Source: a virus
Lineage: Duplodnaviria; Heunggongvirae; Uroviricota; Caudoviricetes
Reading direction: 5' to 3' (one strand)
DNA: 39,063 nucleotides
IMG/VR virus record: IMGVR_UViG_3300029305_011318
Both the position numbers and the translations under genes were made by a program. Under the pieces are notes generated by a model. It saw nothing but the letters and a program-made list of their open reading frames with translations, did not search any database and had not been told where the DNA came from. Within the stretch, counting starts at the first letter, position 1. The number at the start of each line of letters is the position of its first letter. Of the stretch, positions 19,842 to 33,969 are shown piece by piece.

Positions 19842-19915
19842 ATACATCTAAGGGGAGTCGAACCCCTATTTTAAAGTTCGTAGCTTTAACGTTTATCCAT
19901 TAGCTTATAGATGTA
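19842..19915 (-). tRNA. tRNA-Arg(ACG)
   Basis: Cloverleaf; acceptor TACATCT/AGATGTA; anticodon loop CT-ACG-AA. Confidence 0.85.
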
Positions 19916-19918
19916 TAA

Positions 19919-19991
19919 CTAGCGGTATAGGATTTGAACCTATATTGTCGGAGTCAAAGTCCGATGTCATAACCAATTAGACCAACTGCCA
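19919..19991 (-). tRNA. tRNA-Gln(TTG)
   Basis: TCGGA-CT TTG AC-TCCGA; T-arm ATAGG-TTCAAAT-CCTAT. Confidence 0.88.
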
Positions 19992-19998
19992 ATATAAA

Positions 19999-20087
19999 CG
20001 CCGTACCTGGGATTCGAACCCAGAAACCAAATGAATGATTACCGGTTTAGCAAACCGGAGGGGTGCCAATTACCTTTATAATACGGC
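19999..20087 (-). tRNA. tRNA-Ser(GCT)
   Basis: CCGGT-TT GCT AA-ACCGG; long variable arm. Confidence 0.8.
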
Positions 20088-20092
20088 ATGAG

Positions 20093-20165
20093 AGACTCCG
20101 GTGGGATTTGAACCCACGAAAAACAGTTTTGCAGACTGTTGCCTTAACCATTGGGCTACGAAGTC
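20093..20165 (-). tRNA. tRNA-Cys(GCA)
   Basis: ACAGT-CT GCA AA-ACTGT; discriminator U. Confidence 0.9.
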
Positions 20166-20169
20166 CTAA

Positions 20170-20241
20170 TATCCCCAGAACGATTTGAACGTTCAAATGC
20201 GGGGTAGAAACCCGGTGTTTTATCCATTAGACTATGGGGAC
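20170..20241 (-). tRNA. tRNA-Arg(TCT)
   Basis: Acceptor GTCCCCA/TGGGGAT; anticodon loop TT-TCT-AC. Confidence 0.85.
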
Positions 20242-20247
20242 ATAAAA

Positions 20248-20318
20248 CAGAAAATGTAGGAGTCGAACCCACGCTTTTGGTTTTGGAGACCAACGTGCTA
20301 CCATTACACCAATCATCT
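20248..20318 (-). tRNA. tRNA-Trp(CCA)
   Basis: TTGGT-CT CCA AA-ACCAA. Confidence 0.85.
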
Positions 20319-20480
20319 ATGTGCAATTCCTTAATTAAATTAAAATATGTCTAGCGAAGTAAAGGTCCGTTTCGTAAATCAGCATTGTACACTACTGACT
20401 CCATATTTTTTCATTAAGACATTGTTATTCTTTGTGAGGATTCTGCCACTCTCACATCAGTTAGGAGCGACCTAACAATA

Positions 20481-20569
20481 CGCTATCTTAGGGATTTGAA
20501 CCCCAACTGCGATTCAAGCCGCAGACTACGGTTTTCAAGACCGATGCAATACCATTCTGCCAAGATAGC
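20481..20569 (-). tRNA. tRNA-Ser(TGA)
   Basis: Loop CT-TGA-AA; long variable arm; discriminator G. Confidence 0.88.
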
Positions 20570-20575
20570 TTATAG

Positions 20576-20647
20576 TCCGAATGATAGGATTTGAACCTAT
20601 GACTCTCGGTATATCAGACCGATGCTCTACCACTGAACTACATTCGG
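20576..20647 (-). tRNA. tRNA-Ile(GAT)
   Basis: TCGGT-CT GAT AT-ACCGA; acceptor CCGAATG/CATTCGG. Confidence 0.9.
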
Positions 20648-20652
20648 ATAAT

Positions 20653-20695
20653 AAAAAAAGAGATAATTTATCAAACTTATGATAAATTATCTCTT
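20653..20695 (-). terminator. Terminator/attenuator hairpin directly upstream of tRNA cluster A
   Basis: Perfect 16-bp stem AAGAGATAATTTATCA/TGATAAATTATCTCTT followed by a U-run. Confidence 0.85.
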
Positions 20696-20763: not shown

Positions 20764-20871
20764 TTAATCATAAGAAAAATATTTAATTGCAGAACAAATA
20801 GAACTACATGACTGTTGCCATCTAATTTGCGAACAACTTTGTGCAATTCGAATTCGTTTGAAATTAAACAT
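20764..20871 (-). CDS. Leader micro-ORF A (35 aa) MFNFKRIRIAQSCSQIRWQQSCSSICSAIKYFSYD
   Basis: RBS AAGGAG 8 nt before the ATG. It contains codons read by all 8 tRNAs of the downstream cluster. Confidence 0.75.
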   Translation of the reverse strand: MFNFKRIRIAQSCSQIRWQQSCSSICSAIKYFSYD

Positions 20872-20987
20872 ATCGCTTTCTCCTTATAATTTTTGTTAAA
20901 TGCCTGGGCATAATAACTATGCCCAAACATCTGACAAACAACGCAACGTATTTCCCAAAAGAGTTATAGCACATAACTCTCTATCTT

Positions 20988-21011
20988 TATATGTATAAAA
21001 TTTTGTCAAAA
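20988..21011 (-). promoter_or_regulatory. Copy of recurrent 24-bp promoter-like motif (upstream of leader A and tRNA cluster A)
   Basis: Minus strand TTTTGACAAAATTTTATACATATA. Confidence 0.7.
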
Positions 21012-21259
21012 CTTTTCAAAAAAATAACAAAATTTAAAAAAAATAATAAATTTTATTTATCAATTTCGTATTCTTCATTATTTAAATCAATATTGTGGTT
21101 ATTAATAGAAAAAATTATTTGTTTTTTATTTTTATTAGTTAAAATTTTATCCTCTTATATATTGATTATTTTCCTATATTTTGTAAATCAAAACTTTCAC
21201 AAATAATATCTGTTGCCATATCTTCATCTACAGTATGTAATCCAGGATAATATTGACCT

Positions 21260-21748
21260 TTAATCTAATGAAATATCTTCCATTTCTTGATTTAATTCAA
21301 TTTCAGCTTCTTTTTCATAACACCAAGCTCTCATTAATTGTAATCCTTTTTTGCATAATGCAATTTCATCTGATGTAATATTATGATAATTAGCAGTATC
21401 CGGATACCGAACATTATAATATAAACTTTCTATCTTTTTAACATGGGTGCGTAAATTTTCTGAGGCTTGAATATCAAAACGTCGTTGTAATTCAGAAAAC
21501 ATAGCATGAATATTATGCCCAAATGTTTTATATTGTTTTTGATTAAATGAATTTGTCGTTTTATATGTTAATTTATTAATATCTTGTGGTTCAATATTAT
21601 GCGCCTTACATAAAATATGTTTTGCATATTTTTCAATGGCTTGTTGTGTAATATAACCAATGGCATTAGAGTCATTAAATTTAAGCAATTCAATAACGGT
21701 TTTATAATCATTTTCTGCAGCATGAAGCCAATTTAATTGCGTTTCCAT
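21260..21748 (-). CDS. HEPN-domain protein
   Basis: WLHAAENDY...GYITQQAIEKYAK...GHNI...YYNVRYP, typical of MNT-associated HEPN proteins. Confidence 0.82.
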   Translation of the reverse strand: METQLNWLHAAENDYKTVIELLKFNDSNAIGYITQQAIEKYAKHILCKAHNIEPQDINKLTYKTTNSFNQKQYKTFGHNIHAMFSELQRRFDIQASENLRTHVKKIESLYYNVRYPDTANYHNITSDEIALCKKGLQLMRAWCYEKEAEIELNQEMEDISLD

Positions 21749-21978
21749 AATAATACTACCTCTTCTTCATCATCTTTAAAAGAAAAAGGAGCAAAATGGA
21801 GTGTTTCTGGGTCGTTAAAAATTTGTAAATTTATAATTTGATTCATAATATCCATATGGTCATTGGGAGTATTATTTGTAACATAATAAAACGTATCGGA
21901 ACTTACCGATTCATATACCTCTAATAAATATGTAATATTATTAAATAAATCTATTTTTTTTTGCATAATAATCTCCAT
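21733..21978 (-). CDS. Small acidic hypothetical protein overlapping the HEPN start (possible partner)
   Basis: 16-nt overlap with the HEPN gene; upstream promoter motif; no GSxARG MNT motif. Confidence 0.6.
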   Translation of the reverse strand: MEIIMQKKIDLFNNITYLLEVYESVSSDTFYYVTNNTPNDHMDIMNQIINLQIFNDPETLHFAPFSFKDDEEEVVLLWKRN

Positions 21979-21997
21979 TTTTATTTCTTTATATTGT

Positions 21998-22021
21998 TAT
22001 ATGTATAAATTTATCTCAAAG
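21998..22021 (-). promoter_or_regulatory. Copy of recurrent 24-bp promoter-like motif
   Basis: Minus strand CTTTGAGATAAATTTATACATATA. Confidence 0.62.
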
Positions 22022-22227
22022 ATACTTGTTTTATTATTCTAAATCAATTATATATTTCATAAACATAAAAAACAAATTATTGAATAAATAAGGGATATAG
22101 AATATATCTATACCCCCAGGTAGCGTCCGAAGAACCGAGTCTGCAGCCTCTACATCTTTTACAAAATTTCCAGCCAAGGTCATGACTCCTTTACCAAAAA
22201 AACGTAAACATGATGAACTACCACACA

Positions 22228-22300
22228 TGGAACATATGAGATTTGAACTCATGACCCCCTACTTGCAAGGCAGGTGCTCTCCCAACTGAGCTAATGCCCC
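22228..22300 (-). tRNA. tRNA-Ala(TGC)
   Basis: GGGGCAT acceptor with G3:U70; CCTGC-CT TGC AA-GTAGG. Confidence 0.92.
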
Positions 22301-22440
22301 AAATTGACTGGCTACCTCTCAAAACCAGTCGGACTTGGACTTCTCACCCGTAGGCTTCACTCTTGCCTTATCGGTTCACATACATCCAATATAACCACAA
22401 TTATTTATAAGTGAATCGTCAAGAGGTTTTTATTATAAAA

Positions 22441-22676
22441 AACAAATAGTAAGTGATTTCCGTTATTGCAAACGCAAGGCACAGTATAGCACCTTATGAA
22501 CAGTCGGTTCTTCGTATTTCAACGAATCCTATTTCACATGCCGGTTTCATCCAGATTTCTTGGCTCTTTTCCGGTCTTATCCTCTTGTTAATAGAGTCCC
22601 CACTTTTCCTTACAGTCTCCTTTTATTTTCGTTTCAGTAAGTGCTACTTGTAGTCAGATAAACCCTTTTGCAACTA
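22441..22676 (-). ncRNA. Candidate structured non-coding RNA, family unknown
   Basis: GC-enriched, with no supported ORF. Nested pairings CAAATAGT/ACTATTTG, TGCAAA/TTTGCA and GTAGCAC/GTGCTAT; internal hairpin TTCGT-TGAAAT-ACGAA. Confidence 0.5.
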
Positions 22677-22685
22677 TTTGTATTT

Positions 22686-23969
22686 TTATTCTTTTAATAA
22701 TTCTTTATATTTTTTAATTTTATGATTTTCATAAGTGTTTTTATAATCCGTTAAATATTGAATTAGGTCTTGTCCTATTAAACGTTTTTGTTGTAATTCT
22801 CGTAAAAATGATTTTTTTTCTTCATACATAGTAAGTAAAAATTCTTTACGATTCAACGTTAACCCTCTACATTGATTAAAGATATTTTGAACTTCTTCTT
22901 TGGTTGGTAATTTATCAATATTAATCAATGAAAAGTTTTTCACATGACTTAAACATTCAAATTCGGTATTATATAAACCATTTACTGTAGTTTCAACTAA
23001 ATTTTCTGGATATTCGCCCTCTTTAGTTTTTGAACTTCCATTATCAAAAATTGGTGCTGGGCTTATAAATTTTAATGTTTCGGAATTTCGTAAAAATCCA
23101 ATATTTCCTTGATGTCTATCTCTATTTGAAATTAAAAAATCCACAATTGTTTGTATATCTAAATAGTTATGCGTTTCTTGTTTGCTTAATCCATAATGAG
23201 ATGCTAATTCAACAATTTTATCCCAGATGTTATCAAGTTGTGTCATGTTATATTCTTCTAATAAATCATACGCAGATACAAATTCTATATTTTCATTAGT
23301 AAAACATTGACATATACAACCTATGATATTATTTGTTTTGTCATATACAAAATCATAATTACAGAAATTATTATATCCTTGTTTACGATAAATTAAAGAC
23401 GCAATAATTTCACGAGCAATTAAAATATCATATTGCATATCAATTTTTTTACAAAGCATAATATCTTGGTCTTTTTTATACCAAAATTTTTCTAATTGTC
23501 CTCCTAATGTAGAATTATGACCTTTATAAATATGATTGTTATCTTTAACAGTATAAAATTCATCAAGCGATTTAAATTTATCTTGAATATCTTTCCATGT
23601 TAAATTCTCTTTTTCTGATTCAATCCAATAACAATCATTAAAAGAATATCCATTGTTTTCTAACAACCATTTACGAGGAGAATAATCTTTTTGAATATAA
23701 GAATCGTAATTGTAACGATTAATTGGAATTTCTCTATCTGATAACCATCCATCAAATAAAATACAGCCATCTTCATTAAGAATAATATAATTATTATCTT
23801 CTGATTTAGATTCTATAAATTCAATATCATACCCTGGTTTTATTAATCGTTTTAATGGCAATGGTAGGGAATCTAAATATTGTGTGTTAATAATACAGGA
23901 GGTAATATCTTTATGTAAAGTTTCAAAAACAGCAAGATTAATATCTTTATGTTTTAATGTATATAACAT
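22686..23969 (-). CDS. HipA-like (HipA_C) Ser/Thr kinase
   Basis: STLGGQLEKFW; AREIIAS; DFLISNRDRHQGNIGF; APIFDNGSS. Confidence 0.85.
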   Translation of the reverse strand: MLYTLKHKDINLAVFETLHKDITSCIINTQYLDSLPLPLKRLIKPGYDIEFIESKSEDNNYIILNEDGCILFDGWLSDREIPINRYNYDSYIQKDYSPRKWLLENNGYSFNDCYWIESEKENLTWKDIQDKFKSLDEFYTVKDNNHIYKGHNSTLGGQLEKFWYKKDQDIMLCKKIDMQYDILIAREIIASLIYRKQGYNNFCNYDFVYDKTNNIIGCICQCFTNENIEFVSAYDLLEEYNMTQLDNIWDKIVELASHYGLSKQETHNYLDIQTIVDFLISNRDRHQGNIGFLRNSETLKFISPAPIFDNGSSKTKEGEYPENLVETTVNGLYNTEFECLSHVKNFSLINIDKLPTKEEVQNIFNQCRGLTLNRKEFLLTMYEEKKSFLRELQQKRLIGQDLIQYLTDYKNTYENHKIKKYKELLKE

Positions 23970-23981
23970 AATATATTCCTC

Positions 23982-24116
23982 CTATTTGGATTGATTTACA
24001 CGAAATTTGTTTATAGCATATTGAATAATATACTGTTTATCTTTTTTTTCGTTTGATTGATGTTGTTTTAATAAACTTGTTAATTTTTCTTTATCAGAAT
24101 TTATTTTCATAATCAT
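23982..24116 (-). CDS. Small ORF (44 aa) MIMKINSDKEKLTSLLKQHQSNEKKDKQYIIQYAINKFRVNQSK immediately upstream of the HipA-like kinase
   Basis: RBS AAAAGGA. Its stop codon overlaps the AGGAGG RBS of the kinase gene. Confidence 0.55.
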   Translation of the reverse strand: MIMKINSDKEKLTSLLKQHQSNEKKDKQYIIQYAINKFRVNQSK

Positions 24117-24181
24117 GTCCTTTTGTAATATAAATTAATATGTATTATACCACAAACAACACTATAAAAATATATTTTGGA

Positions 24182-24222
24182 AAAATTCCCTCTATATTGA
24201 AATATAATATAGGGGGAATTAT
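24182..24222. terminator. Intrinsic terminator
   Basis: AATTCCCTCTATATT/AATATAGGGGGAATT hairpin. Confidence 0.75.
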
Positions 24223-24223
24223 T

Positions 24224-24334
24224 TTACTTGGATTTTGTAGTTTTCTTCAATTTTTCTTTTTCTTTGTCTAATTCGTTCTTCATTTTTTTATGAAGACTAC
24301 CAATTTTTCCAACTGGTTTACAAGAAAGACCCAT
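24224..24334 (-). CDS. Small basic protein (36 aa) MGLSCKPVGKIGSLHKKMKNELDKEKEKLKKTTKSK
   Basis: RBS AAGGAG; own promoter motif upstream and terminator downstream. Confidence 0.65.
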   Translation of the reverse strand: MGLSCKPVGKIGSLHKKMKNELDKEKEKLKKTTKSK

Positions 24335-24382
24335 AATATACCTTCTCCTTTGTAATTTATAATTAAATTGTATTTACATGTA

Positions 24383-24406
24383 TATATGTTTAAAATCTTC
24401 TCAAAA
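24383..24406 (-). promoter_or_regulatory. Copy of recurrent 24-bp promoter-like motif
   Basis: Minus strand TTTTGAGAAGATTTTAAACATATA. Confidence 0.68.
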
Positions 24407-24442
24407 TCTTTAAAAATTTACTAAAATTTTAAAAAATAAAAA

Positions 24443-24519
24443 TGCCTTGTGTTGGAGTCGAACCAACTTCTCTGGATTTTCAGTCCAGTGCATGAAATTA
24501 CCGAATCTGCTTACAAGGC
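24443..24519 (-). tRNA. tRNA-Phe(GAA)
   Basis: CTGGA-CT GAA AA-TCCAG; acceptor GCCTTGT/ACAAGGC. Confidence 0.88.
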
Positions 24520-24566
24520 TAGGTAAAGTCAATGATTTCTTTACCTTTGCTAAATCGTTGTTTCAT
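24519..24566 (-). CDS. Micro-ORF (15 aa) MKQRFSKGKEIIDFT abutting tRNA-Phe
   Basis: RBS AGAAAGGA; CGA-TTT at codons 4-5; the G of the TAG stop is tRNA nucleotide 1. Confidence 0.62.
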   Translation of the reverse strand: MKQRFSKGKEIIDFT

Positions 24567-24603
24567 ATACTATTATCCTTTCTATATTTTTTTGATTACA
24601 TTT

Positions 24604-24885
24604 CTAATATAATATACATTGATTTACTAATTTTTCTACTAATTCTCGGTCAATTGGTCTTACACAGTGTCTACAATGCATCAAATATTGCACCAAGAAA
24701 AGTGCTCGTTCTTCAATTTGAACTTTTTCATATTCTAAAAAATAAACATTGTATTTGTGTAATAGTTTAAAAATATCGCTTCTGACAGGACCAACCTCTG
24801 CATCTTTGTTACCAAGAAACATTTTTGTAATTTCTCGGTTAAATTCCATCCTTTTATTCAGATTGTTCATTATATAAATCCCCAT
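24604..24885 (-). CDS. Hypothetical protein within the tRNA array
   Basis: 93-aa ORF filling the spacer between tRNA-Leu(TAG) and the Phe micro-ORF. Confidence 0.6.
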   Translation of the reverse strand: MGIYIMNNLNKRMEFNREITKMFLGNKDAEVGPVRSDIFKLLHKYNVYFLEYEKVQIEERALFLVQYLMHCRHCVRPIDRELVEKLVNQCILY

Positions 24886-24941
24886 ACCAAATCATTTGTG
24901 CATATTTGTTTTCTTTTCTATATATAAGTTTTTATATCAAA

Positions 24942-25023
24942 TACGGGTAATGGGAGTCGAACCCATAAGTAATTAAACCACTATATCCTAAGTATAGCCT
25001 CTGTTCCATTCGAGTACACCCGC
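24942..25023 (-). tRNA. tRNA-Leu(TAG)
   Basis: CTATA-CT TAG GA-TATAG; long variable arm; A73. Confidence 0.87.
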
Positions 25024-25029
25024 TTAAAG

Positions 25030-25093
25030 TACCCGAAGTTGGATTTAAACTAATAATATTATGATTTTAAATCATACATGTATTATTCGGGTA
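25030..25093 (-). pseudogene. Degenerate tRNA-like element lacking a D-arm (TAA anticodon-like loop)
   Basis: TACCCGAA/TTCGGGTA closing stem; TATGA-TTTAAAA-TCATA hairpin; degraded T-loop TTTAAAT. Confidence 0.5.
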
Positions 25094-25096
25094 TAG

Positions 25097-25179
25097 TACA
25101 CCCGATGAGATTCGAACTCACATGAGCAAGCTCCTTAGATTTTAAGTCTAATGCGTATACCAAGTTCCGCCACGGGTGC
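25097..25179 (-). tRNA. tRNA-Leu(TAA)
   Basis: TTAGA-CT TAA AA-TCTAA; Leu-type D-loop; long variable arm. Confidence 0.9.
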
Positions 25180-25185
25180 ATAATA

Positions 25186-25227
25186 TTATGTTTTGGTTAA
25201 TAAAGATAATAATTGGAGTCGCAACAT
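25186..25227 (-). CDS. Micro-ORF (13 aa) MLRLQLLSLLTKT upstream of the tRNA-Leu genes
   Basis: RBS AGAAAGGA; codons TTG CGA CTC CAA TTA TTA TCT TTA TTA; stop 6 nt before tRNA-Leu(TAA). Confidence 0.7.
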   Translation of the reverse strand: MLRLQLLSLLTKT

Positions 25228-25257
25228 ATTATGTTCCTTTCTATAATAAAAGTTGAG

Positions 25258-25328
25258 TTGCTATAACCAGGTTCGAACTGATTACACTATCCTTATGAGG
25301 GACAGCCGCTTCCACTAGCGTTATAGCA
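25258..25328 (-). tRNA. tRNA-Met/Ile2 (CAT)
   Basis: Loop CT-CAT-AA; acceptor TGCTATA/TATAGCA. Met versus Ile2 cannot be resolved by eye. Confidence 0.75.
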
Positions 25329-25337
25329 ATATGAATA

Positions 25338-25409
25338 AGCACATGAAGGGAGTTGAACCCTCGCTTCTTGCTTGGAAGGCAAGCGTCATAGCCGTTAGAC
25401 CACATATGC
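25338..25409 (-). tRNA. tRNA-Gly(TCC)
   Basis: CTTGC-CT TCC AA-GCAAG; U73. Confidence 0.9.
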
Positions 25410-25525
25410 ATATATTAGGCTAATAAGAAAATCAGTCTTTTCCACTCATAATATAGACTATTCGCTTCTTTTTTCTATGATTAAACTCTGTTGTTCTATT
25501 CATAAATTCTCTTTGATATTTTAAC

Positions 25526-25597
25526 TAGGAAGGGAGGGAATCGAACCCTCGACAACCCGCTTATAAGACGTGCTTTCTGCCACTGAATTACCTTCCC
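25526..25597 (-). tRNA. tRNA-Ile(TAT)
   Basis: Loop CT-TAT-AA; acceptor GGGAAGG/CCTTCCT; T-arm GAGGG-TTCGATT-CCCTC. Confidence 0.82.
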
Positions 25598-25638
25598 GTA
25601 TTTTTGTAAATATGGTTCGGTATTCGTATTCGTTTCAT
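25588..25638 (-). CDS. Micro-ORF (16 aa) MKRIRIPNHIYKNTGR running into tRNA-Ile(TAT)
   Basis: RBS AGAAAGG; codons AAA CGA ATA CGA ATA; the last 10 nt overlap the tRNA 5' end. Confidence 0.68.
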   Translation of the reverse strand: MKRIRIPNHIYKNTGR

Positions 25639-25671
25639 AAATATTATTACCTTTCTTATTTATAATAGAAA

Positions 25672-25745
25672 TAGCGGGAGTAGGATTCGAACCTACGTAT
25701 CCAAGGTTATGAGCCTTGTGAGCATCCTCTACTCGTCATCCCGCA
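25672..25745 (-). tRNA. tRNA-Met(CAT), initiator-like
   Basis: GG-CTCATAA-CC anticodon arm; mismatched 1:72 pair; only two G-C pairs at the stem base. Confidence 0.78.
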
Positions 25746-25750
25746 TATAG

Positions 25751-25823
25751 TGACTCCTGCCGGACTTGAACCGAGCATTACATCCTTGAAAGGGATGTGT
25801 CCTAACCTCTAGACCAAGGAGCC
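25751..25823 (-). tRNA. tRNA-Glu(TTC)
   Basis: CATCC-CT TTC AA-GGATG. Confidence 0.88.
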
Positions 25824-25969
25824 AAATAATAAATTGACTAAGGTTGGTTTTAACAGTTCCAACAACTTTGTACTTTTTATACTGCACCACGCAGTTTGTG
25901 TAGTCCCTCACAATTCTTATTATTCTAATAAGCAACTATCTTAAACATGTGCACATCCATTTTAGAAAG

Positions 25970-26043
25970 AGCCGATAGAGGGACTTGAACCCCCAACAAT
26001 CTGCTTACAAGGCAGTCGCTCTACCAATTGGAGCTATATCGGC
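25970..26043 (-). tRNA. tRNA-Thr(TGT)
   Basis: Loop CT-TGT-AA; acceptor GCCGATA/TATCGGC. Confidence 0.9.
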
Positions 26044-26075
26044 AAATAACTGATTCGTTACATTTTGGTTATTTA

Positions 26076-26789
26076 TTACCCCATTGCTCTACGACACACT
26101 CTTTTTTCAAGTAATGGCGTATCGATTTCAAAATAACCATTAATTATACGGTCATATTGAAACCATTGTGTTTCAGATGGAATAGGTTTAGAAATACCTT
26201 CTTCAAATGCTTCAATACATGCATATTGATAACATGTTTCATTTAAATCTGTTAAATTAAAATGTAATGCTTCAATGGCATTCAATTTATCGGTATAAAA
26301 TCCCCATACTCTACTTGCTCCATGATTATTAAATCCAGCAGGTCGTCTTTCGATTTCACCATTTTCATTTTGTTTTTCATATATAACTTCTTCTAATGTT
26401 TCGCACACATAAATGGTATAAATTTTGTGTGTATTTGTTTTTTGTGTGTTTAATCGAATAAAAGCAAGAATTTTATCCGATGGTAAATCGAATTCACATA
26501 TGTAATGAAAATTAATCGTATCTTTTAAAGATTTCCCATTTGTAGATAATATATCTTGATAATTCGTTGGGTTTTTTTTGTACGAAACTATATCTACAAT
26601 TGTACCTAATGTTAAATTGTCCATAGATTTTTCTTTATCTTCGATAATAACAGTGGAGGCTACAATTTGTCTTATATCATGCCATAAACCATGTACTTTA
26701 TATTGTGGATGATTTGTAGTAATTGTAATCTGTGGCATAAAATATTTTTGGATGTCTTTTTGAGATAACATATAAATTGCCTCCATCAA
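26076..26789 (-). CDS. Hypothetical protein within the tRNA array
   Basis: 237-aa ORF. A GGAGG RBS suggests the real start is the internal MLSQK. Confidence 0.75.
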   Translation of the reverse strand: MMEAIYMLSQKDIQKYFMPQITITTNHPQYKVHGLWHDIRQIVASTVIIEDKEKSMDNLTLGTIVDIVSYKKNPTNYQDILSTNGKSLKDTINFHYICEFDLPSDKILAFIRLNTQKTNTHKIYTIYVCETLEEVIYEKQNENGEIERRPAGFNNHGASRVWGFYTDKLNAIEALHFNLTDLNETCYQYACIEAFEEGISKPIPSETQWFQYDRIINGYFEIDTPLLEKRVCRRAMG

Positions 26790-26814
26790 AAATAATAAAA
26801 TCGTTTTGGATTAA

Positions 26815-26900
26815 GGGTGAAAGATGAGACTTGAACTCACAAGGGCATTTACCCGCCGGAACCACAATCCGGTGCGTTTACCAATTCCGCCACTAACACC
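26815..26900 (-). tRNA. tRNA-His(GTG) with a long variable arm
   Basis: CCGGA-TT GTG GT-TCCGG; G-1:C73; Leu-like D-loop; extra arm CGGG-TAAATG-CCC. Confidence 0.82.
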
Positions 26901-27065
26901 ATATGTAAGGGTGACACTAAGCATATGACTACAACCGAATCATCTACAGTCATAATCAATCTTCTCCGAGGTTTTACCCCTTACTATTTTATCAAGGCAC
27001 AACTTGATAAACCTTAGACATAAGTTTTTTGTATAGAAATCTTGTACTACTCTATACATGCTTCG

Positions 27066-27139
27066 TTGGAATAGTGGGATTCGAACCCACACATTCTCCC
27101 ATCCAACGGGAGTTGGCTACCAATTACCTCTATATTCCA
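27066..27139 (-). tRNA. tRNA-Pro(TGG)
   Basis: CTCCC-GT TGG AT-GGGAG; T-arm GTGGG-TTCGAAT-CCCAC. Confidence 0.82.
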
Positions 27140-27235
27140 TTAACATTATCAGTTAATACTTTTAATTCAGATGTCTTATATGGTAATCCATATTTTTTAC
27201 ACCATTTTCTATCATTACACCACATTCTCGCTATA

Positions 27236-27487
27236 TTATGCAGAAATGTATTCTGTTTCATAATCTTTCATATCTGCAGATACGATTTCTTTGTCTTTCA
27301 TTTCTGCAATAGTTGGTAAATTATAATGCTTACCATATTTACATAATTTGCAGCTACAATGAATTTTATTTTTTGAATATTGTCCATCATGTTCATACCA
27401 ATTATCTCTATAAATAGCATGACAAATGGCTTTTTTACGCATGATGTGTTTATTTCGTAAACGTCTTCGTTCTGCTCTATAATGCAT
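27236..27487 (-). CDS. Small basic Cys/His-containing hypothetical protein
   Basis: RBS AGGAGA; HCSCKLC motif. Confidence 0.72.
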   Translation of the reverse strand: MHYRAERRRLRNKHIMRKKAICHAIYRDNWYEHDGQYSKNKIHCSCKLCKYGKHYNLPTIAEMKDKEIVSADMKDYETEYISA

Positions 27488-27516
27488 AAGGTATCTCCTA
27501 TAATGGTGTTTTATAA

Positions 27517-27597
27517 TGCGTCTGACAGGATTCGAACCTGCGATGGATTGCTCCCACGGATTAAAAGTCCGGTGCCCTACCTCTAGGCGACAGACGC
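27517..27597 (-). tRNA. tRNA-Lys(TTT) with an enlarged variable region
   Basis: Loop CT-TTT-AA; acceptor GCGTCTG/CAGACGC; extra hairpin GGA-GCAA-TCC. Confidence 0.85.
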
Positions 27598-27639
27598 TTA
27601 TGGTTTTCGTACTTTTGATTTACGTTTTCGTTTCTTCAT
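27598..27639 (-). CDS. Micro-ORF (13 aa) MKKRKRKSKVRKP abutting tRNA-Lys(TTT)
   Basis: RBS AGAAAGGA; codons AAG AAA CGA AAA CGT AAA TCA AAA GTA CGA AAA; the TAA directly precedes tRNA nucleotide 1. Confidence 0.72.
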   Translation of the reverse strand: MKKRKRKSKVRKP

Positions 27640-27825
27640 AATAATATGTTTCCTTTCTATTTCTTAATTTTTAATTACTAGGCTCCCAATCTGCTACTCT
27701 ATATATAATGGTTCATTACAAATGTTTCTAGCTAATCATCTTGTAATATAATATATATTTCATTGGTTGATTTAAGGTGCAGTTTCGCCTCGGTTCTTAT
27801 GTTAAACTGAACTCCACCTAGTAAA

Positions 27826-27897
27826 TGCCTAATGAGGGATTCGAACCTACAACTTTTCGGTTAACAGCCGCTTGCTCTACCATTGAACTACACGCCC
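27826..27897 (-). pseudogene. Chimeric/defective tRNA-Asn(GTT)
   Basis: Normal D and anticodon arms, but 5' GGGCGTG does not pair with 3' ATTAGGC and T-stem GTAGG does not pair with CCCTC. Confidence 0.72.
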
Positions 27898-28127: not shown

Positions 28128-28227
28128 AACTTTTCCCTTTCTGTTTGTTTCTTAATATTACTATACGGTAATTTTTATTTTTTGAAAGTATTTTTCAAAA
28201 ATTTTTTATTTTTTTCTTATCTATGTA

Positions 28228-28251
28228 TATATGTATAAAAATTTCTCAAAA
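28228..28251 (-). promoter_or_regulatory. Copy of recurrent 24-bp promoter-like motif (upstream of leader B and tRNA cluster B)
   Basis: Minus strand TTTTGAGAAATTTTTATACATATA. Confidence 0.7.
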
Positions 28252-28283
28252 ATCATCAAAAAATAGATAATTTTTAAAATTTT

Positions 28284-29346: not shown

Positions 29347-29378
29347 AAAAAAAGATACGACTTAAATCGTATCTTTTT
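29347..29378. terminator. Intrinsic terminator
   Basis: AAAAGATACGA-CTTAAA-TCGTATCTTTT. Confidence 0.82.
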
Positions 29379-30570
29379 CATCATATTCTTCTATTTTATT
29401 TATTTCATAATCTAAAGTATTATTTTTATCTTTAATAGGGATTTGTAATTCTTTTGCTCTTTCCATAAAAGATTGATATTGTCTATCTGTCAAAAACAAA
29501 TCTCTTGTAATGGGTTTTGTAAAATGAAAATCTACATGTTTCATGGCTTCTTTTGCAGTTTCATAAATAGATTCTCCGGTTAATTGATATTTGGCATTTT
29601 TATCTCGCATATAAGCAATATCAAACGCATTATTATGGTCGTACAAAGGATGACAACCTAATATTTCCATTGTATTACAATTATAGAAAAATCCCCAATT
29701 CATACCATGCCTATCACGATTACTAATTAAATAATCAACTATCATCATTTTATACATAGAATCCGGGTCTATTTTAATGGCTTCTCGTAATGTATCTAAT
29801 CCTTGTTGGTTACAATACGAATAAAAATCAACACCCGGTAAAATAGCAATATCTTCTGTTGTCATACATTTACATTTTACAGTATCTAAGATTTCATTTG
29901 TTTGTACATCCATAGATGTGCTCATTTCATAATGAAGATGTTCAACATTACAACAATCTAAAATATTGCTGCACATAGCTTCAATTTTTGATTCCCAAGA
30001 ACCATTTGCACCTAATTTATGTAAGTATAATCCATCTTCTTCTCTCTTCCATGCTTTTGCATAGGCTCCTTGTCCTGTTAATTCCGGTGTGGTTAAATTT
30101 CCATCTAAAGATAAACTACTGCCATGTAAAGATACTTGAATAACCACTTCACTTAATGAATTGGTTCGTAAATTAACATCTTCCCAAGTTTTAGTATCGC
30201 CTTCTAATTTTACCCAATAATTATCTTGTAAGGATACTGCCCGACATAATAATGCTATTTTGGCTTTATCATAATCAGATTGCAATTGTTCTAAATTAAA
30301 TAATGTGTAAATTTTCTTTGCATTATCACGAGTAATAGGTAATACCCGATGTGCTAAAAATGACTTTATTGAATCGTTATTAGCATTATTAACGATAGTG
30401 GCTTGCGTAACGTCATATTTAAAATTACCGGTTAATGGTTTATGTTCACGTAATCTATATTTTAATGTAAATGGAATTAATTGTTTATTTAATACATCAT
30501 ATTTACCTTCATCAAAATTAATTTGCATAACCGGTTCATTTTTCATCATTAATAATAAATCTCTTGCCAT
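29362..30570 (-). CDS. Second HipA-like (HipA_C) Ser/Thr kinase
   Basis: PELTGQGAYAKAW; DYLISNRDRHGMNWGF; HPLYDHNNAF; RBS AAGGAGAGG. Confidence 0.85.
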   Translation of the reverse strand: MARDLLLMMKNEPVMQINFDEGKYDVLNKQLIPFTLKYRLREHKPLTGNFKYDVTQATIVNNANNDSIKSFLAHRVLPITRDNAKKIYTLFNLEQLQSDYDKAKIALLCRAVSLQDNYWVKLEGDTKTWEDVNLRTNSLSEVVIQVSLHGSSLSLDGNLTTPELTGQGAYAKAWKREEDGLYLHKLGANGSWESKIEAMCSNILDCCNVEHLHYEMSTSMDVQTNEILDTVKCKCMTTEDIAILPGVDFYSYCNQQGLDTLREAIKIDPDSMYKMMIVDYLISNRDRHGMNWGFFYNCNTMEILGCHPLYDHNNAFDIAYMRDKNAKYQLTGESIYETAKEAMKHVDFHFTKPITRDLFLTDRQYQSFMERAKELQIPIKDKNNTLDYEINKIEEYDEKDTI

Positions 30571-30705: not shown

Positions 30706-33700
30706 TTACATACTTATACGTTCTGAAATTTCCGCCATCTTCGCTTTATTTAAGCGAGTATCTCCATGAACTCGTGAAAATGAAAGATAGCCATTCATTC
30801 TGTCAATCTTAGTTAGATTACTGCTTCCGCATTTTGGACATACATCCATTTCTAACTGTTGATGACCACAATCATCACAATATGCTAATGATAAATTAAC
30901 TCCTTCATAGAATCCCATTTTCATTGCACGACGTACTAATGTTTTAATAGAATCTATATTATAATCAATTGGGTATCGTACATATTGAATTTTTCCACCA
31001 TTGAATAAATTCCAAAATCTATTTTCTAAATTTTGTTTTTCAATTGGTGTGATTTTTTCTGTAACATGACAATGAAAACTGTTAGATACATATTCTCTAT
31101 CTGATACGTTTTCAATAATGCCGAATTCTTTTCTAAATTGTGTTACTTGTTTACCCGTTAAACTTTCGGCAGGAGTCCCATATATAGCATAAAGGATATT
31201 ATCTTCTTTTTTATATTCATCTAATTTTTTATTAATATATTCCATTACTTCTAATGCAAATTGCCCATCTTCTACTATGGATTTACCATTATATAATCTT
31301 TGTAATTCGTTCAAAGCAGTAATACCAAAAGAGGCTGTTGATGATTTTAATACAGGAGCAATTTTATCATTCAAATCTAAATGCCCACCATAAAAACCAC
31401 CTTCACAAAAACCTAATGGATTCATAGATGCTTTCATATGGGATAAATGTTCATAAGTTCGTTTATGAATATTCCGTATCATTTCTAAATAATAATCTAA
31501 TTCTTCATAAAAATCTTTTCCGGTTCGTCTGGATTTTGCTAAAATCATTGGAAGATGTAAAGACACAACTCCGCAATTAAATCTTCCAACAAATACCGGT
31601 TTGTCATTTTCATCTACTGGATACATTCCACCATATTCATACCAAGGAGAAAGGAAAGCTCTACAATTATGACTATATATACCGCTAACTTCAAAATGCT
31701 CGCTATCTGTTGTAACATCATAACTATACATTTGTCTTTCTATTGGTAAGATTTCAACAATTTCCGCATACGTATTATAATGAGATGAAACTGCATCTCT
31801 ATAAAATTGACGTTTTTTTTCACAAATAATATAATTGAGCAATTCTTCTGTTGCGAAAAATTCAACTCTATAGCGAATAGCATTTGGATTATTTTTTAAA
31901 TAATGATTGTGATAAATTTTAGCGGGCATACCCAAGGCTTGTACTAATGCCATTTGTTGTAACGACAATTCTTTATTTGTGGAACCAATTTGAACAACTG
32001 AACCACCATGCGAACTTGCATTTAAATAACCATCAGCATCAATCATTCCTGCTAAAAACGCCATTTTAGATTCATAATCCCAAGAAAAAACTTCGTTAGG
32101 AATATGCCGATTAATCTTATTAATTCCGCCAAATTTTACAGTAAAATAATTTATAGTAGATTGTAAGTTATTATTTTCATCAGCTATTGCAACTAAATCT
32201 TTATATCGACCTTTCTTACCTCGTTCTTGTAAAATTGTTTTTGTTTTTAAATCAAAATATTTTGAAAAAACATAGTGGAACTTATTCTCGATTTCATCTT
32301 CTCCTTGTGCGGCTATTGACACATAAATTCTGTTAGATTGATAACAACCATCACAAAGCATAAATCCTAATAACCAAGCCTTATCTTTATTAAAAACAAT
32401 TGTTTCTTCATTATATTGGTTTGAATTTATCATAATTTTATCTGATATTTGTAAATTTTTAGCGATTATTTGACCTTTTTCAATAACTTCAAAAGGATGG
32501 TCCTCGGTACACAATAGTCGACGACCATTTGATAAATGTACATCAATCCATTTATCAGATACATTTCGTATGATTTTTTGTGTATTTACAAAACCTTTTT
32601 CAGTATCATATATCATTACATCTAATAAATTCATATACATGTGTGGTTGACCTAAAATTTGATATTGTGGTTCAAAAAAGTCCGATAGTCGTTTCCACAT
32701 TCTTTCAAAAGATTCAACATATAATTGATTTTTATATTTATATGTGATAATTTCTTTGCCATCTACGCAACCCATTGGCGAAACTACTTTTCCATATTTT
32801 TTATACATTTCTGCCACATAACCATCACCAGTTAAACTTAACCAGTCAGGATACATGGTTTTTGCAGAACATTGTATTCCTACCTCAAAAACATCTTCTA
32901 AAACTTTTCCAGGTCCATGTAAATTTTCATCATACAGGAAAACCAATTTCGGAAATAAAACCGGTTTTTTATGACCTTTTTTACCTTGACCATTCATTCT
33001 AGTTCTTAAAATAGATTTGGAAATCTCTTTACCCCATTTGGAAGTATTTAATCCAAAAGTTGCGGTAATAAATGGATAATCTCCACGGCTAGAAGCTACG
33101 GTATTAAATTTGTATTCCCAGCCTTGAAATCCTTGGTCTATATCTTTACATACTTTTTTTGTTGCATATTCATTAGCATCTTGTGATAAATTAATACCAT
33201 ACGCATCATATTCAATATTATGTTGTTGCATAATATCTAAATATTCATTATAATATCTTTGATATGATTTTTCGGCATATGGCTCTAATATAAAATCTAC
33301 TTCCGGAAGTGTGAAACCTCCATACTGCTGACTCGCGGCCATTAATGTAATATCTCCAATCACATCAAATGCAGTATCAATTGTTTTAGGTTCATTATAC
33401 CAAACATTTCCCATTTCAAATCCACCAGTAAGAATAGACTGAATATCGCAGAGACAGCAATTCATGGTATCAAGTCTGGCACCTTTATCATGAGGATAGA
33501 TATAACCTTCTGCCGCCGCTTTCCGTTCATCTGCATTAAGAAAATATTCTTCATATTGTGCTGTCTCTAAAATATCTAATTTTTTGACTCTTTTAGTAGA
33601 GACTAATGATGAATCTGCATTGGAATTGGATTTATCTCCTAAAAATTGAATAGCATTACATTCGGCTGTTACTTTAGCATTCATTTGTGCTTCTCGTTTA

Positions 33701-33969
33701 ATCCAATTACGATAATCTTTATAAGATTTCGCAACATCCGAGCGAATTTCTTCTAATGCCATTTCTACTAAAGAATGTACTGTTTCTACCGGAATAACAT
33801 TATCACTTCTAGTAAAAACTTGATTTTCGACTAATGCTATCACTTTTGCGTTTTCGTCATCCGATAATTGAGAAGCAATACGGTTAGCTGATTCGCTAAT
33901 GGCATGTATAATTTTGTTCGCATCCCACTCTTCTAAATTCCCGGATTTTTTTCTTACATAAATATCCAT
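30706..33969 (-). CDS. nrdD: Class III (anaerobic) ribonucleoside-triphosphate reductase with ATP-cone, containing an intein
   Basis: N-terminal ATP-cone; YGTPAESL; Zn ribbon CDDCG...CPKCG; glycyl-radical motif RMNGYL. Confidence 0.95.
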   Translation of the reverse strand: MDIYVRKKSGNLEEWDANKIIHAISESANRIASQLSDDENAKVIALVENQVFTRSDNVIPVETVHSLVEMALEEIRSDVAKSYKDYRNWIKREAQMNAKVTAECNAIQFLGDKSNSNADSSLVSTKRVKKLDILETAQYEEYFLNADERKAAAEGYIYPHDKGARLDTMNCCLCDIQSILTGGFEMGNVWYNEPKTIDTAFDVIGDITLMAASQQYGGFTLPEVDFILEPYAEKSYQRYYNEYLDIMQQHNIEYDAYGINLSQDANEYATKKVCKDIDQGFQGWEYKFNTVASSRGDYPFITATFGLNTSKWGKEISKSILRTRMNGQGKKGHKKPVLFPKLVFLYDENLHGPGKVLEDVFEVGIQCSAKTMYPDWLSLTGDGYVAEMYKKYGKVVSPMGCVDGKEIITYKYKNQLYVESFERMWKRLSDFFEPQYQILGQPHMYMNLLDVMIYDTEKGFVNTQKIIRNVSDKWIDVHLSNGRRLLCTEDHPFEVIEKGQIIAKNLQISDKIMINSNQYNEETIVFNKDKAWLLGFMLCDGCYQSNRIYVSIAAQGEDEIENKFHYVFSKYFDLKTKTILQERGKKGRYKDLVAIADENNNLQSTINYFTVKFGGINKINRHIPNEVFSWDYESKMAFLAGMIDADGYLNASSHGGSVVQIGSTNKELSLQQMALVQALGMPAKIYHNHYLKNNPNAIRYRVEFFATEELLNYIICEKKRQFYRDAVSSHYNTYAEIVEILPIERQMYSYDVTTDSEHFEVSGIYSHNCRAFLSPWYEYGGMYPVDENDKPVFVGRFNCGVVSLHLPMILAKSRRTGKDFYEELDYYLEMIRNIHKRTYEHLSHMKASMNPLGFCEGGFYGGHLDLNDKIAPVLKSSTASFGITALNELQRLYNGKSIVEDGQFALEVMEYINKKLDEYKKEDNILYAIYGTPAESLTGKQVTQFRKEFGIIENVSDREYVSNSFHCHVTEKITPIEKQNLENRFWNLFNGGKIQYVRYPIDYNIDSIKTLVRRAMKMGFYEGVNLSLAYCDDCGHQQLEMDVCPKCGSSNLTKIDRMNGYLSFSRVHGDTRLNKAKMAEISERISM
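31666..32769 (-). mobile_element. Intein (368 aa) with a LAGLIDADG homing endonuclease in nrdD
   Basis: SPMG|CVDG...YSHN|CRAF junctions; two LAGLIDADG motifs, WLLGFMLCDG and FLAGMIDADG. Confidence 0.92.

Follow-up and report, generated by a model that had tools for sequence, protein, structure and literature searches.

CGA codons ahead of tRNA-cognate codons in five putative leader frames of a phage tRNA array

We analysed a stretch of 39,063 nucleotides (the window) of IMG/VR virus record IMGVR_UViG_3300029305_011318. The window lies in a 127-kb contig that represents an uncultured phage of a faecal or gut metagenome; it has 28.7% GC and carries every one of its genes on the minus strand. 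A tRNA array occupies the middle of the window: ARAGORN located 20 tRNA genes between positions 19842 and 27900, and Rfam added a tRNA-Phe, a short tRNA-like element and a partial Asn-like tRNA. Five very short open reading frames (micro-ORFs) lie ahead of tRNA genes in this array, and each holds the arginine codon CGA followed at once by a codon for the amino acid of the next tRNA (a CGA-X pair). These frames and the tRNA genes needed to follow them are listed here.

20764..20871, minus strand: leader A, a micro-ORF of 35 amino acids, with CGA-ATT at codons 6-7 (20856..20851) and 8-9 (20850..20845)
24519..24566, minus strand: Phe micro-ORF of 15 amino acids, with CGA-TTT at codons 4-5 (24557..24552)
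25186..25227, minus strand: Leu micro-ORF of 13 amino acids (6/13 codons for Leu), with CGA-CTC at codons 3-4 (25221..25216)
25588..25638, minus strand: Ile micro-ORF of 16 amino acids, with CGA-ATA at codons 3-4 (25632..25627) and 5-6 (25626..25621)
27598..27639, minus strand: Lys micro-ORF of 13 amino acids (6/13 codons for Lys), with CGA-AAA at codons 4-5 (27630..27625) and 11-12 (27609..27604)
19842..20647, minus strand: tRNA cluster behind leader A, comprising Ile(GAT), Ser(TGA), Trp, Arg(TCT), Cys, a 91-nt type-II-like tRNA, Gln and Arg(ACG)
19842..19915, minus strand: tRNA-Arg(ACG), the sole CGA-reading tRNA of the array
24443..24519, minus strand: tRNA-Phe(GAA), found by Rfam and missed by ARAGORN

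A sequence-only reading of the window had drawn attention to these five frames for the CGA that precedes a codon for the amino acid of the next tRNA, and all eight of the pairs it described are present. Codon order is constant, with CGA first in 8/8 pairs, and the triplet that follows tracks tRNA identity (ATT, ATA, AAA, TTT and CTC). Leader A and the Ile leader have a 15-nt motif in common, AAA-CGA-ATN-CGA-ATN, which differs exactly at the Ile wobble base, reading ATT before tRNA-Ile(GAT) and ATA before tRNA-Ile(TAT). CTC in the Leu micro-ORF is cognate to tRNA-Leu(UAA) at the level of the amino acid only and is unread by it under standard wobble; tRNA-Leu(UAG), two genes further downstream, might be its reader. 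The Lys micro-ORF also holds CGT-AAA. The first CGA of the five frames falls at codons 3, 3, 4, 4 and 6. The Arg anticodons of the array are ACG and TCT and, as the sequence-only reading had said, the tRNA gene list contains no TCG. The anticodon loop of tRNA-Arg(ACG) is CUACGAA, presumably a substrate of the deaminase TadA, and this tRNA would then carry inosine at position 34 (I34).

All five frames have an AAGG/AGGA-type Shine-Dalgarno (SD) site 7-10 nt upstream. Relative to the first tRNA base, the stop codons of the four frames other than leader A lie at -6 (Leu, which ends 6 nt before tRNA-Leu(TAA), starting at 25179), 0 (Lys, whose TAA adjoins tRNA-Lys(TTT) at 27517..27597), +1 (Phe, in which the last base of TAG is the first base of tRNA-Phe(GAA)) and +10 (Ile, which overlaps tRNA-Ile(TAT), 25526..25597, by 10 nt). 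Leader A has a composition drawn from the amino acids of its tRNA cluster.

We compared these frames with chance expectation. A census of frames that open with an SD-led ATG, run for at least 10 codons and stop within -10 to +35 of a tRNA 5' end found them at 4/12 tRNA spacers; shuffled spacers gave a mean of 0.23, and none of 5000 shuffles reached four. Codon usage was taken from 28 ordinary genes of the phage (10,021 codons, 278 of them for Arg), in which AGA (128), CGT (67) and CGA (47, or 16.9%) lead the Arg codons. In the five micro-ORFs CGA makes up 8/11 Arg codons (binomial P = 7e-5, or 5e-4 with tandem hexamers collapsed) and 8/9 of the codons read by the ACG anticodon, as against 36% in genes (P = 1.7e-3). 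A codon for the cognate amino acid stands after 8/8 CGA; when codon order was shuffled within each frame, the product of the per-ORF rates gave P of about 8e-6 (2.3e-4 collapsed), and 0/200,000 joint shuffles reached the observed adjacency. The density of CGA-X pairs is 87 per 1000 codons in the frames and 0.8 in the genes, a difference of roughly 100-fold. Since the CGA trinucleotide occurs in all array spacers at about its expected frequency (24 observed, 20 expected), the excess belongs to the frames and not to the DNA. The CGA bias and the adjacency of CGA to a cognate codon are thus beyond chance. Two general sources of the bias were tried and rejected: codon context, CGA being only 8/56 (14%) of the Arg codons before ATT, ATA, AAA or TTT in genes, and gene-start bias, the first 12 codons of genes having CGA at just 3/13 Arg positions. 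The sequence-only reading had proposed the comparison of CGA frequency between genes and micro-ORFs; it yielded the excess just described, but also 47 CGA among 278 Arg codons in genes, so that CGA is not a rare codon in this phage.

Related arrays were located through homologues of a HipA-like kinase encoded inside the array (22686..23969). The closest belong to relatives L011-L013 and L105 (kinase 62% identical in both cases), followed by group 1 (L018-L026, L036, L041 and L084; about 54%) and group 2 (L032-L037; about 53%, 26.6% GC). Homologues of the Leu leader were found at L011:3448-3525 and L036:1631-1723, with two CGA-Leu pairs in each and the first CGA at codon 2. The frame in L011 starts ATG CGA TTA TAT CGA TTG and extends 32 nt into tRNA-Leu(CAA); that in L036 starts ATG CGA CTC GAA CGA TTA and occupies the Leu block that the window also has, before an apparently 5'-truncated Leu(TAA) gene. 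On alignment of the three phages TGCGA is invariant, and the Leu codons and the remainder have diverged. The common start M-(L)-R-L-x-R-L uses CGA for 5/5 Arg, compared with a genomic share of 15-17% in each of the phages.

Leader A has homologues at L011:6287-6436 and L105:3701-3823, with peptides rich in Ile, Arg, Ser, Cys, Gln and Trp, the promoter motif described below on the 5' side, and a terminator hairpin followed by a tRNA cluster on the 3' side. This family keeps the Arg-Ile dipeptide but writes its Arg as either CGA or AGA. The two phages whose controlled cluster includes Arg(ACG), that of the window and L105, have CGA in the leader, and the one with Arg(TCT) only, L011, lacks it. 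In group 2, where CGA is only 2% of Arg codons and no Arg(ACG) was seen in the locus, L032 has a Phe leader of 15 codons; three of these are TTT, and the frame stops 10 nt into tRNA-Phe and persists in altered form in L037. A further candidate leader of 27 codons, rich in Thr, Ile, Asp and Asn, occupies L032:9814-9897, 72 nt before a cluster of 16 tRNAs that includes those for these amino acids. By hand tally over all leaders, CGA fills 13 of about 21 Arg positions directly before a cognate codon. As far as the leader sequences indicate, CGA is strongly favoured in these frames and is not obligatory.

A 36-aa Lys-rich ORF at 24224-24334 of the window is followed by a strong terminator hairpin (24184-24220). 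Its 48-aa homologue in group 1 (L018:1320-1466) has 16 Lys and ends 30 nt before tRNA-Lys(TTT), and the window copy may be a displaced Lys leader.

Other searches for relatives were negative. In GenBank phages, DNA searches for near and for distant similarity hit nothing but tRNA bodies, and a protein search of GenBank phages with the kinase gave only matches of 25-30% identity. Searches of IMG/VR with three single proteins found no relatives, and two tRNA-based pattern searches returned unrelated contigs or none. Helicase homologues (64-71% identity) had no tRNAs within 10 kb, and homologues of a 237-aa protein of the array led to more distant phages with tRNAs lacking leader frames. Phass-1 has an independent dispersed array and 50% GC; when the 100-nt flanks 5' of its tRNAs were read by eye, without a frame census, no leader frames stood out. 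Among species-representative genomes, kinase homologues without arrays were found in Lachnospiraceae and Oribacterium, and these cellular homologues make Lachnospiraceae, Oribacterium or other Clostridia the likely host group. The same phage was present at about 3x in four faecal DNA runs with identical sequence, and therefore offered no variation to read. No RNA run was listed as containing it.

The frames fall into two kinds of transcription unit, for which two further features are needed.

28210..28260, minus strand: promoter-like motif (TTTTGAnAAnATTTT..ACATATA), head of the transcript with the four internal micro-ORFs
20658..20695, minus strand: intrinsic-terminator-like hairpin, 16 bp with a T-run, between leader A and the 8-tRNA cluster

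The promoter-like motif is strongly conserved, heads operons and occurs in the array region at 28234, 24389, 22004 and 20994. It was not found directly 5' of any of the four internal micro-ORFs, and from the positions of its copies the Lys, Ile, Leu and Phe frames would lie in one long transcript from about 28234. Leader A lies behind its own copy at 20994, and Arg(ACG) is the last gene of a transcription unit other than that of the internal frames. Over the whole window the motif, TTTTGA(g/c)AAnATTTT..ACATATA, is found in 11 minus-strand copies before operons (37279, 34019, 30645, 29324, 28234, 24389, 22004, 20994, 12352, 8483 and 2350), and its spacing does not suit the -35/-10 elements of standard sigma-70 promoters. 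No hairpin or T-run terminator lies between frame and tRNA in the Lys, Ile, Leu and Phe units. Folding predicts the leaders to be unstructured, and they would thus be accessible to ribosomes. Two RNA-based candidates were rejected on the same predictions: a T-box-like specifier, for which no Stem I-like structure was seen, and pairing of the leader with the tRNA or its T-loop, which was absent from three of the four internal leaders. The Ile unit is the exception, its minimum-energy fold pairing leader bases with the tRNA 5' strand.

The 91-nt gene at 19998-20088, labelled Gly(tcc) by ARAGORN, shows by eye a TT-GCT-AA loop and a long variable arm, and is more likely a type II tRNA-Ser(GCT); leader A holds AGT twice. 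The tRNA-Lys(UUU) at 27517-27597 has 81 nt and an extra variable-region stem, which is atypical for a Lys tRNA.

We favour, with a probability of roughly one in three (about 0.35), a reading in which the five micro-ORFs are translated leaders that gauge the supply of the adjacent tRNAs, and in which CGA placed before the sensor codon is an optional decoding handicap that sharpens the sensor. CGA would depend for its decoding on tRNA-Arg(ICG) alone and on a purine-purine I:A wobble. With CGA in the ribosomal P site at codons 2-6, the next, cognate codon would be decoded less robustly, and the short peptidyl-tRNA would be prone to pause or drop off, so that a modest shortage of the cognate tRNA could hold the ribosome early in the leader. 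In leader A such a pause would favour read-through of the downstream terminator. In the four internal leaders it would leave the tRNA free to fold and to be cut by RNase P, and a ribosome that reaches the stop codon would cover the 5' strand of the tRNA acceptor. Translation of the five frames, slowing by CGA in the host of this phage and an effect of the leaders on tRNA maturation are all presumed steps of this scheme. CGA looks like a tuning element and not a defining or essential one, because relatives use AGA or no Arg codon at all. The stronger proposal, that a P-site CGA amplifies a tRNA-supply sensor while ribosome position controls tRNA maturation, as a bacterial counterpart of the inhibitory codon pairs of yeast, is in our judgement unlikely.

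Several observations weigh against the favoured reading. CGA is common in the genes of the phage (4.7 per 1000 codons, third of the six Arg codons), and the pairs CGA-ATT, ATA, AAA, TTT and CTC are not avoided there (8 observed, 9.1 expected), which speaks against a strongly harmful pair. Both the Lys and the Leu leader have cognate codons ahead of the first CGA. The leader A family uses CGA-ATT twice in the window, CGA-ATT once and AGA-ATT twice in L105, and AGA-ATT once in L011; the Phe leader of L032 has no CGA, and its Thr/Ile/Asp/Asn-rich candidate leader has no Arg codon and hence no CGA. All chance tests were post hoc, set after the pattern had been seen, and the tandem hexamers and possible paralogy lower the independence of the statistics; leader A and the Ile frame in particular are not independent, because of their shared 15-nt motif. 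In Bacillus subtilis four consecutive CGA codons leave expression undiminished (PMC10454642), so the general statement of the sequence-only reading that CGA is usually read inefficiently fails in the one Firmicute tested. The two observations that the sequence-only reading named as refuting, CGA common in genes and its free replacement in homologous leaders, were both made in part. Conservation of the dicodon, suggested earlier as a check, gave a divided answer, with CGA-Leu kept in three diverged phages (5/5) and replaced or missing in the leader A homologues and the L032 Phe leader. What survives of the proposal that a P-site CGA sensitises a hungry A-site codon is the codon bias, the adjacency, the retention in Leu leaders and precedents from yeast and Escherichia coli; the abundance of CGA in genes, the AGA swaps and the CGA-less Phe leader detract from it.

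It is also possible, although we hold it only tentatively, that CGA is itself the sensor codon, reporting on the phage Arg tRNAs (ACG and TCT) as the weakest codon read by the ICG anticodon, and that the adjacency arises from packing sensor codons together. Support for this is best in leader A, where the co-variation of CGA with Arg(ACG), in three phages only, suggests that the Arg codons are sensor codons themselves. The cluster with Arg(TCT) and Arg(ACG) in the window goes with leader codons CGA, CGA and AGA; in L105, which has both tRNAs, the leader has AGA three times, CGA once and CGT twice; in L011, with Arg(TCT) only, it has AGA three times, CGT once and no CGA. The CGA-less leaders of group 2, with no Arg(ACG) in the locus, fit as well. 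However, what follows each of the four internal micro-ORFs is a Lys, Ile, Leu or Phe tRNA and never one for Arg, and Arg(ACG) is in a different transcription unit. A sensor role for CGA also leaves unexplained why a cognate codon directly follows every CGA.

An explanation by descent, doubtful but worth weighing, is that the frames inherited an Arg-X repeat (RIRI, KRKRK, RLxRL) through hexamer duplication and module copying, that what matters is a basic N-terminus or an R/K-x-R/K pattern in the nascent chain, and that CGA is simply the founder codon that has not drifted. CGAATT-CGAATT, CGAATA-CGAATA and CGAAAA-CGTAAA are indeed tandem hexamers, the 15-nt motif links leader A to the Ile leader, and the leader A family retains Arg-Ile while its Arg codon varies. 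R/K-x-R/K occurs in 4/5 frames and is tied to ribosome arrest in macrolide arrest peptides. Against descent alone, the CGA excess (P = 5e-4) and the adjacency (P = 2e-4) persist after duplicates are collapsed, and the Lys, Leu and Phe frames share only their Shine-Dalgarno context, which ordinary genes share too. In the Leu family, moreover, the neighbouring codons have drifted (CTC, TTA, TTG) and all five CGA have been kept.

It appears improbable that the frames are untranslated, or that the eye has singled out a chance dicodon in A-rich spacers, in which ACGA is a frequent context. Frames of 13-16 codons often stay open at 29% GC, A-CGA-A is also found outside the frames, the spacers as a whole show no CGA enrichment, and the tests were made after the fact. 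Chance would nevertheless have to produce an SD site, an ATG and an end at the tRNA in 4/12 spacers, Lys and Leu codons at 6/13 positions of their respective frames, and conservation of the leader A and Leu frames in phages whose kinases are only 54-62% identical.

Least probable is that CGA forms part of a signal in the nucleic acid itself, which could be a site for a protein or RNase, a -10 region and its start site, or a stretch of leader that pairs with the tRNA: TAATAT-like sequences overlap the ATG of several frames, a sigma-70-like match lies at 27667..27638, TGCGA is invariant in the three Leu leaders and AATTCGAATT in leader A is a palindrome, but sigma-70-like matches show no excess (44, against 54.7 in shuffles), the bases after CGA vary codon-wise with tRNA identity, pairing with the tRNA is confined to the Ile unit, and the idea that CGA marks the start site of a -10 box was rejected because the phage's own conserved promoter motif is absent before the internal frames.

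The closest precedent for the favoured reading, CGA as a handicap before the sensor codon, is found in yeast. There a P-site CGA paired through I:A shifts the mRNA backbone, and the conformation of the A-site codon disfavours decoding (10.1101/755652). Seventeen inhibitory pairs are known in yeast, including CGA-AUA, AUA-CGA, GUA-CGA and CGA-CUG as well as CGA-CGA and CGA-CCG (Gamble et al. 2016, tabulated in PMC13492127), and CGA-AUA ranks third of 3721 pairs by ribosome density (PMC13492127). Three of these, CGA-AUA, AUA-CGA and GUA-CGA, occur literally in the phage Ile and Lys leaders (GUA-CGA in Lys), and the Ile(UAU) leader amounts to three consecutive listed pairs because both CGA-AUA and AUA-CGA are on the list. 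As in yeast, CGA would be read only by tRNA-Arg(ICG) with I:A wobble. In contrast, the partners AAA, UUU, AUU and CUC are unlisted in yeast, with CGA-CUG as a near match to CGA-CUC; the phage has a bacterial host, where the slowdown is presumed from sequence and is doubtful in Firmicutes; and the pair here would serve as a sensor in a leader of 13-35 codons, not as a brake within a protein gene.

The leaders also resemble the attenuators of amino-acid operons (trpL, hisL, pheL, leuL, thrL and ilvL), which have a short SD-led frame enriched in codons that report on charged tRNA; thrL, too, starts M-K-R-I. Of the features of a trpL-type attenuator, the short SD-led frame with regulatory codons is present, and leader A, which is kept in L011 and L105, is alone in having an intrinsic terminator as well. 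The other four frames end on the tRNA 5' end and, for want of that terminator, stand outside the classical attenuators. The phage system differs further in that the regulated genes are tRNA genes and the regulatory codons alternate with Arg in place of forming runs.

Hungry codons at +2 to +8 bring about drop-off of peptidyl-tRNA in E. coli, to an extent that varies with position (PMC2490762), and CGN pairs at +2 and +3 lead to poor expression (PMC2034473). The phage frames are alike in having a weak Arg codon within +2 to +8 of a very short frame, at positions where distance from the start matters. The E. coli work on early hungry codons and minigenes used AGA/AGG in laboratory constructs with toxicity or low expression as readout, and these two reports describe no natural regulatory use before tRNA genes. 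In a Salmonella his-leader 'speedometer', P- and E-site codons alter the rate at which the A-site codon is read, as reported by attenuation (PMC11805395); that system employs a UCA-UAC pair in an engineered leader and involves neither CGA nor tRNA genes. By analogy, then, the phage leaders would act like a CGA-led inhibitory pair set inside a leader peptide, and they are not demonstrated members of either family. We found no description in the literature of leader peptides before phage tRNA genes.

The remaining features of the array and its surroundings include two elements reported by Rfam.

25030..25092: AT-rich tRNA-like element of 63 nt between two Leu tRNAs, whose counterpart in L036 is a 74-nt tRNA
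27834..27890: partial Asn(GTT)-like tRNA (28.9 bits)

The HipA_C-like kinase inside the array has a paralogue at 29362-30570, and homologues of this kinase adjoin tRNA arrays in three other phage lineages in addition to occurring in the Lachnospiraceae and Oribacterium genomes mentioned above. Known targets of HipA are aminoacyl-tRNA synthetases, and the phage kinase may be linked to tRNA supply. Between the kinase gene and tRNA-Ala lies a GC-enriched non-coding stretch of 380 nt (22302-22685), which gave no Rfam match at E up to 1. The NrdD gene (anaerobic ribonucleotide reductase, 30706-33969) contains an intein with a LAGLIDADG endonuclease domain.

Among the relatives, L026 and L036 have a tmRNA within their arrays, and L001, L003, L004 and L102 encode SmpB, a T4 Rnl1-type RNA ligase, a CCA-adding enzyme and a PTH2 peptidyl-tRNA hydrolase; this group of phages invests heavily in tRNA repair and ribosome rescue. 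Two more distant relatives have a tRNA with anticodon UCA (L102:9048-9120 and L104:8649-8721), which suggests UGA recoding in these phages. In L105 about 800 nt of GC-rich non-coding sequence (L105:60-900) separates the 3' end of tRNA-Asn from a Thr-Pro-His-Glu tRNA block and may be a large structured RNA.

In conclusion, if CGA does sensitise the codon that follows it, these leaders would be the first case outside yeast in which a CGA-led codon pair is put to regulatory use in nature. They also bear on whether ribosomes in general show the P-site I:A effect. Changing CGA to CGT or AGA provides a simple handle on whether micro-ORFs before phage tRNA genes sense tRNA supply. Should CGA turn out to be no more than a founder codon or a sensor of Arg supply, the evidence for a codon-by-codon match between leader and tRNA would still be strengthened, as in the use of ATT and ATA for the two Ile tRNAs and of AGA and CGA following the Arg tRNAs of the cluster.

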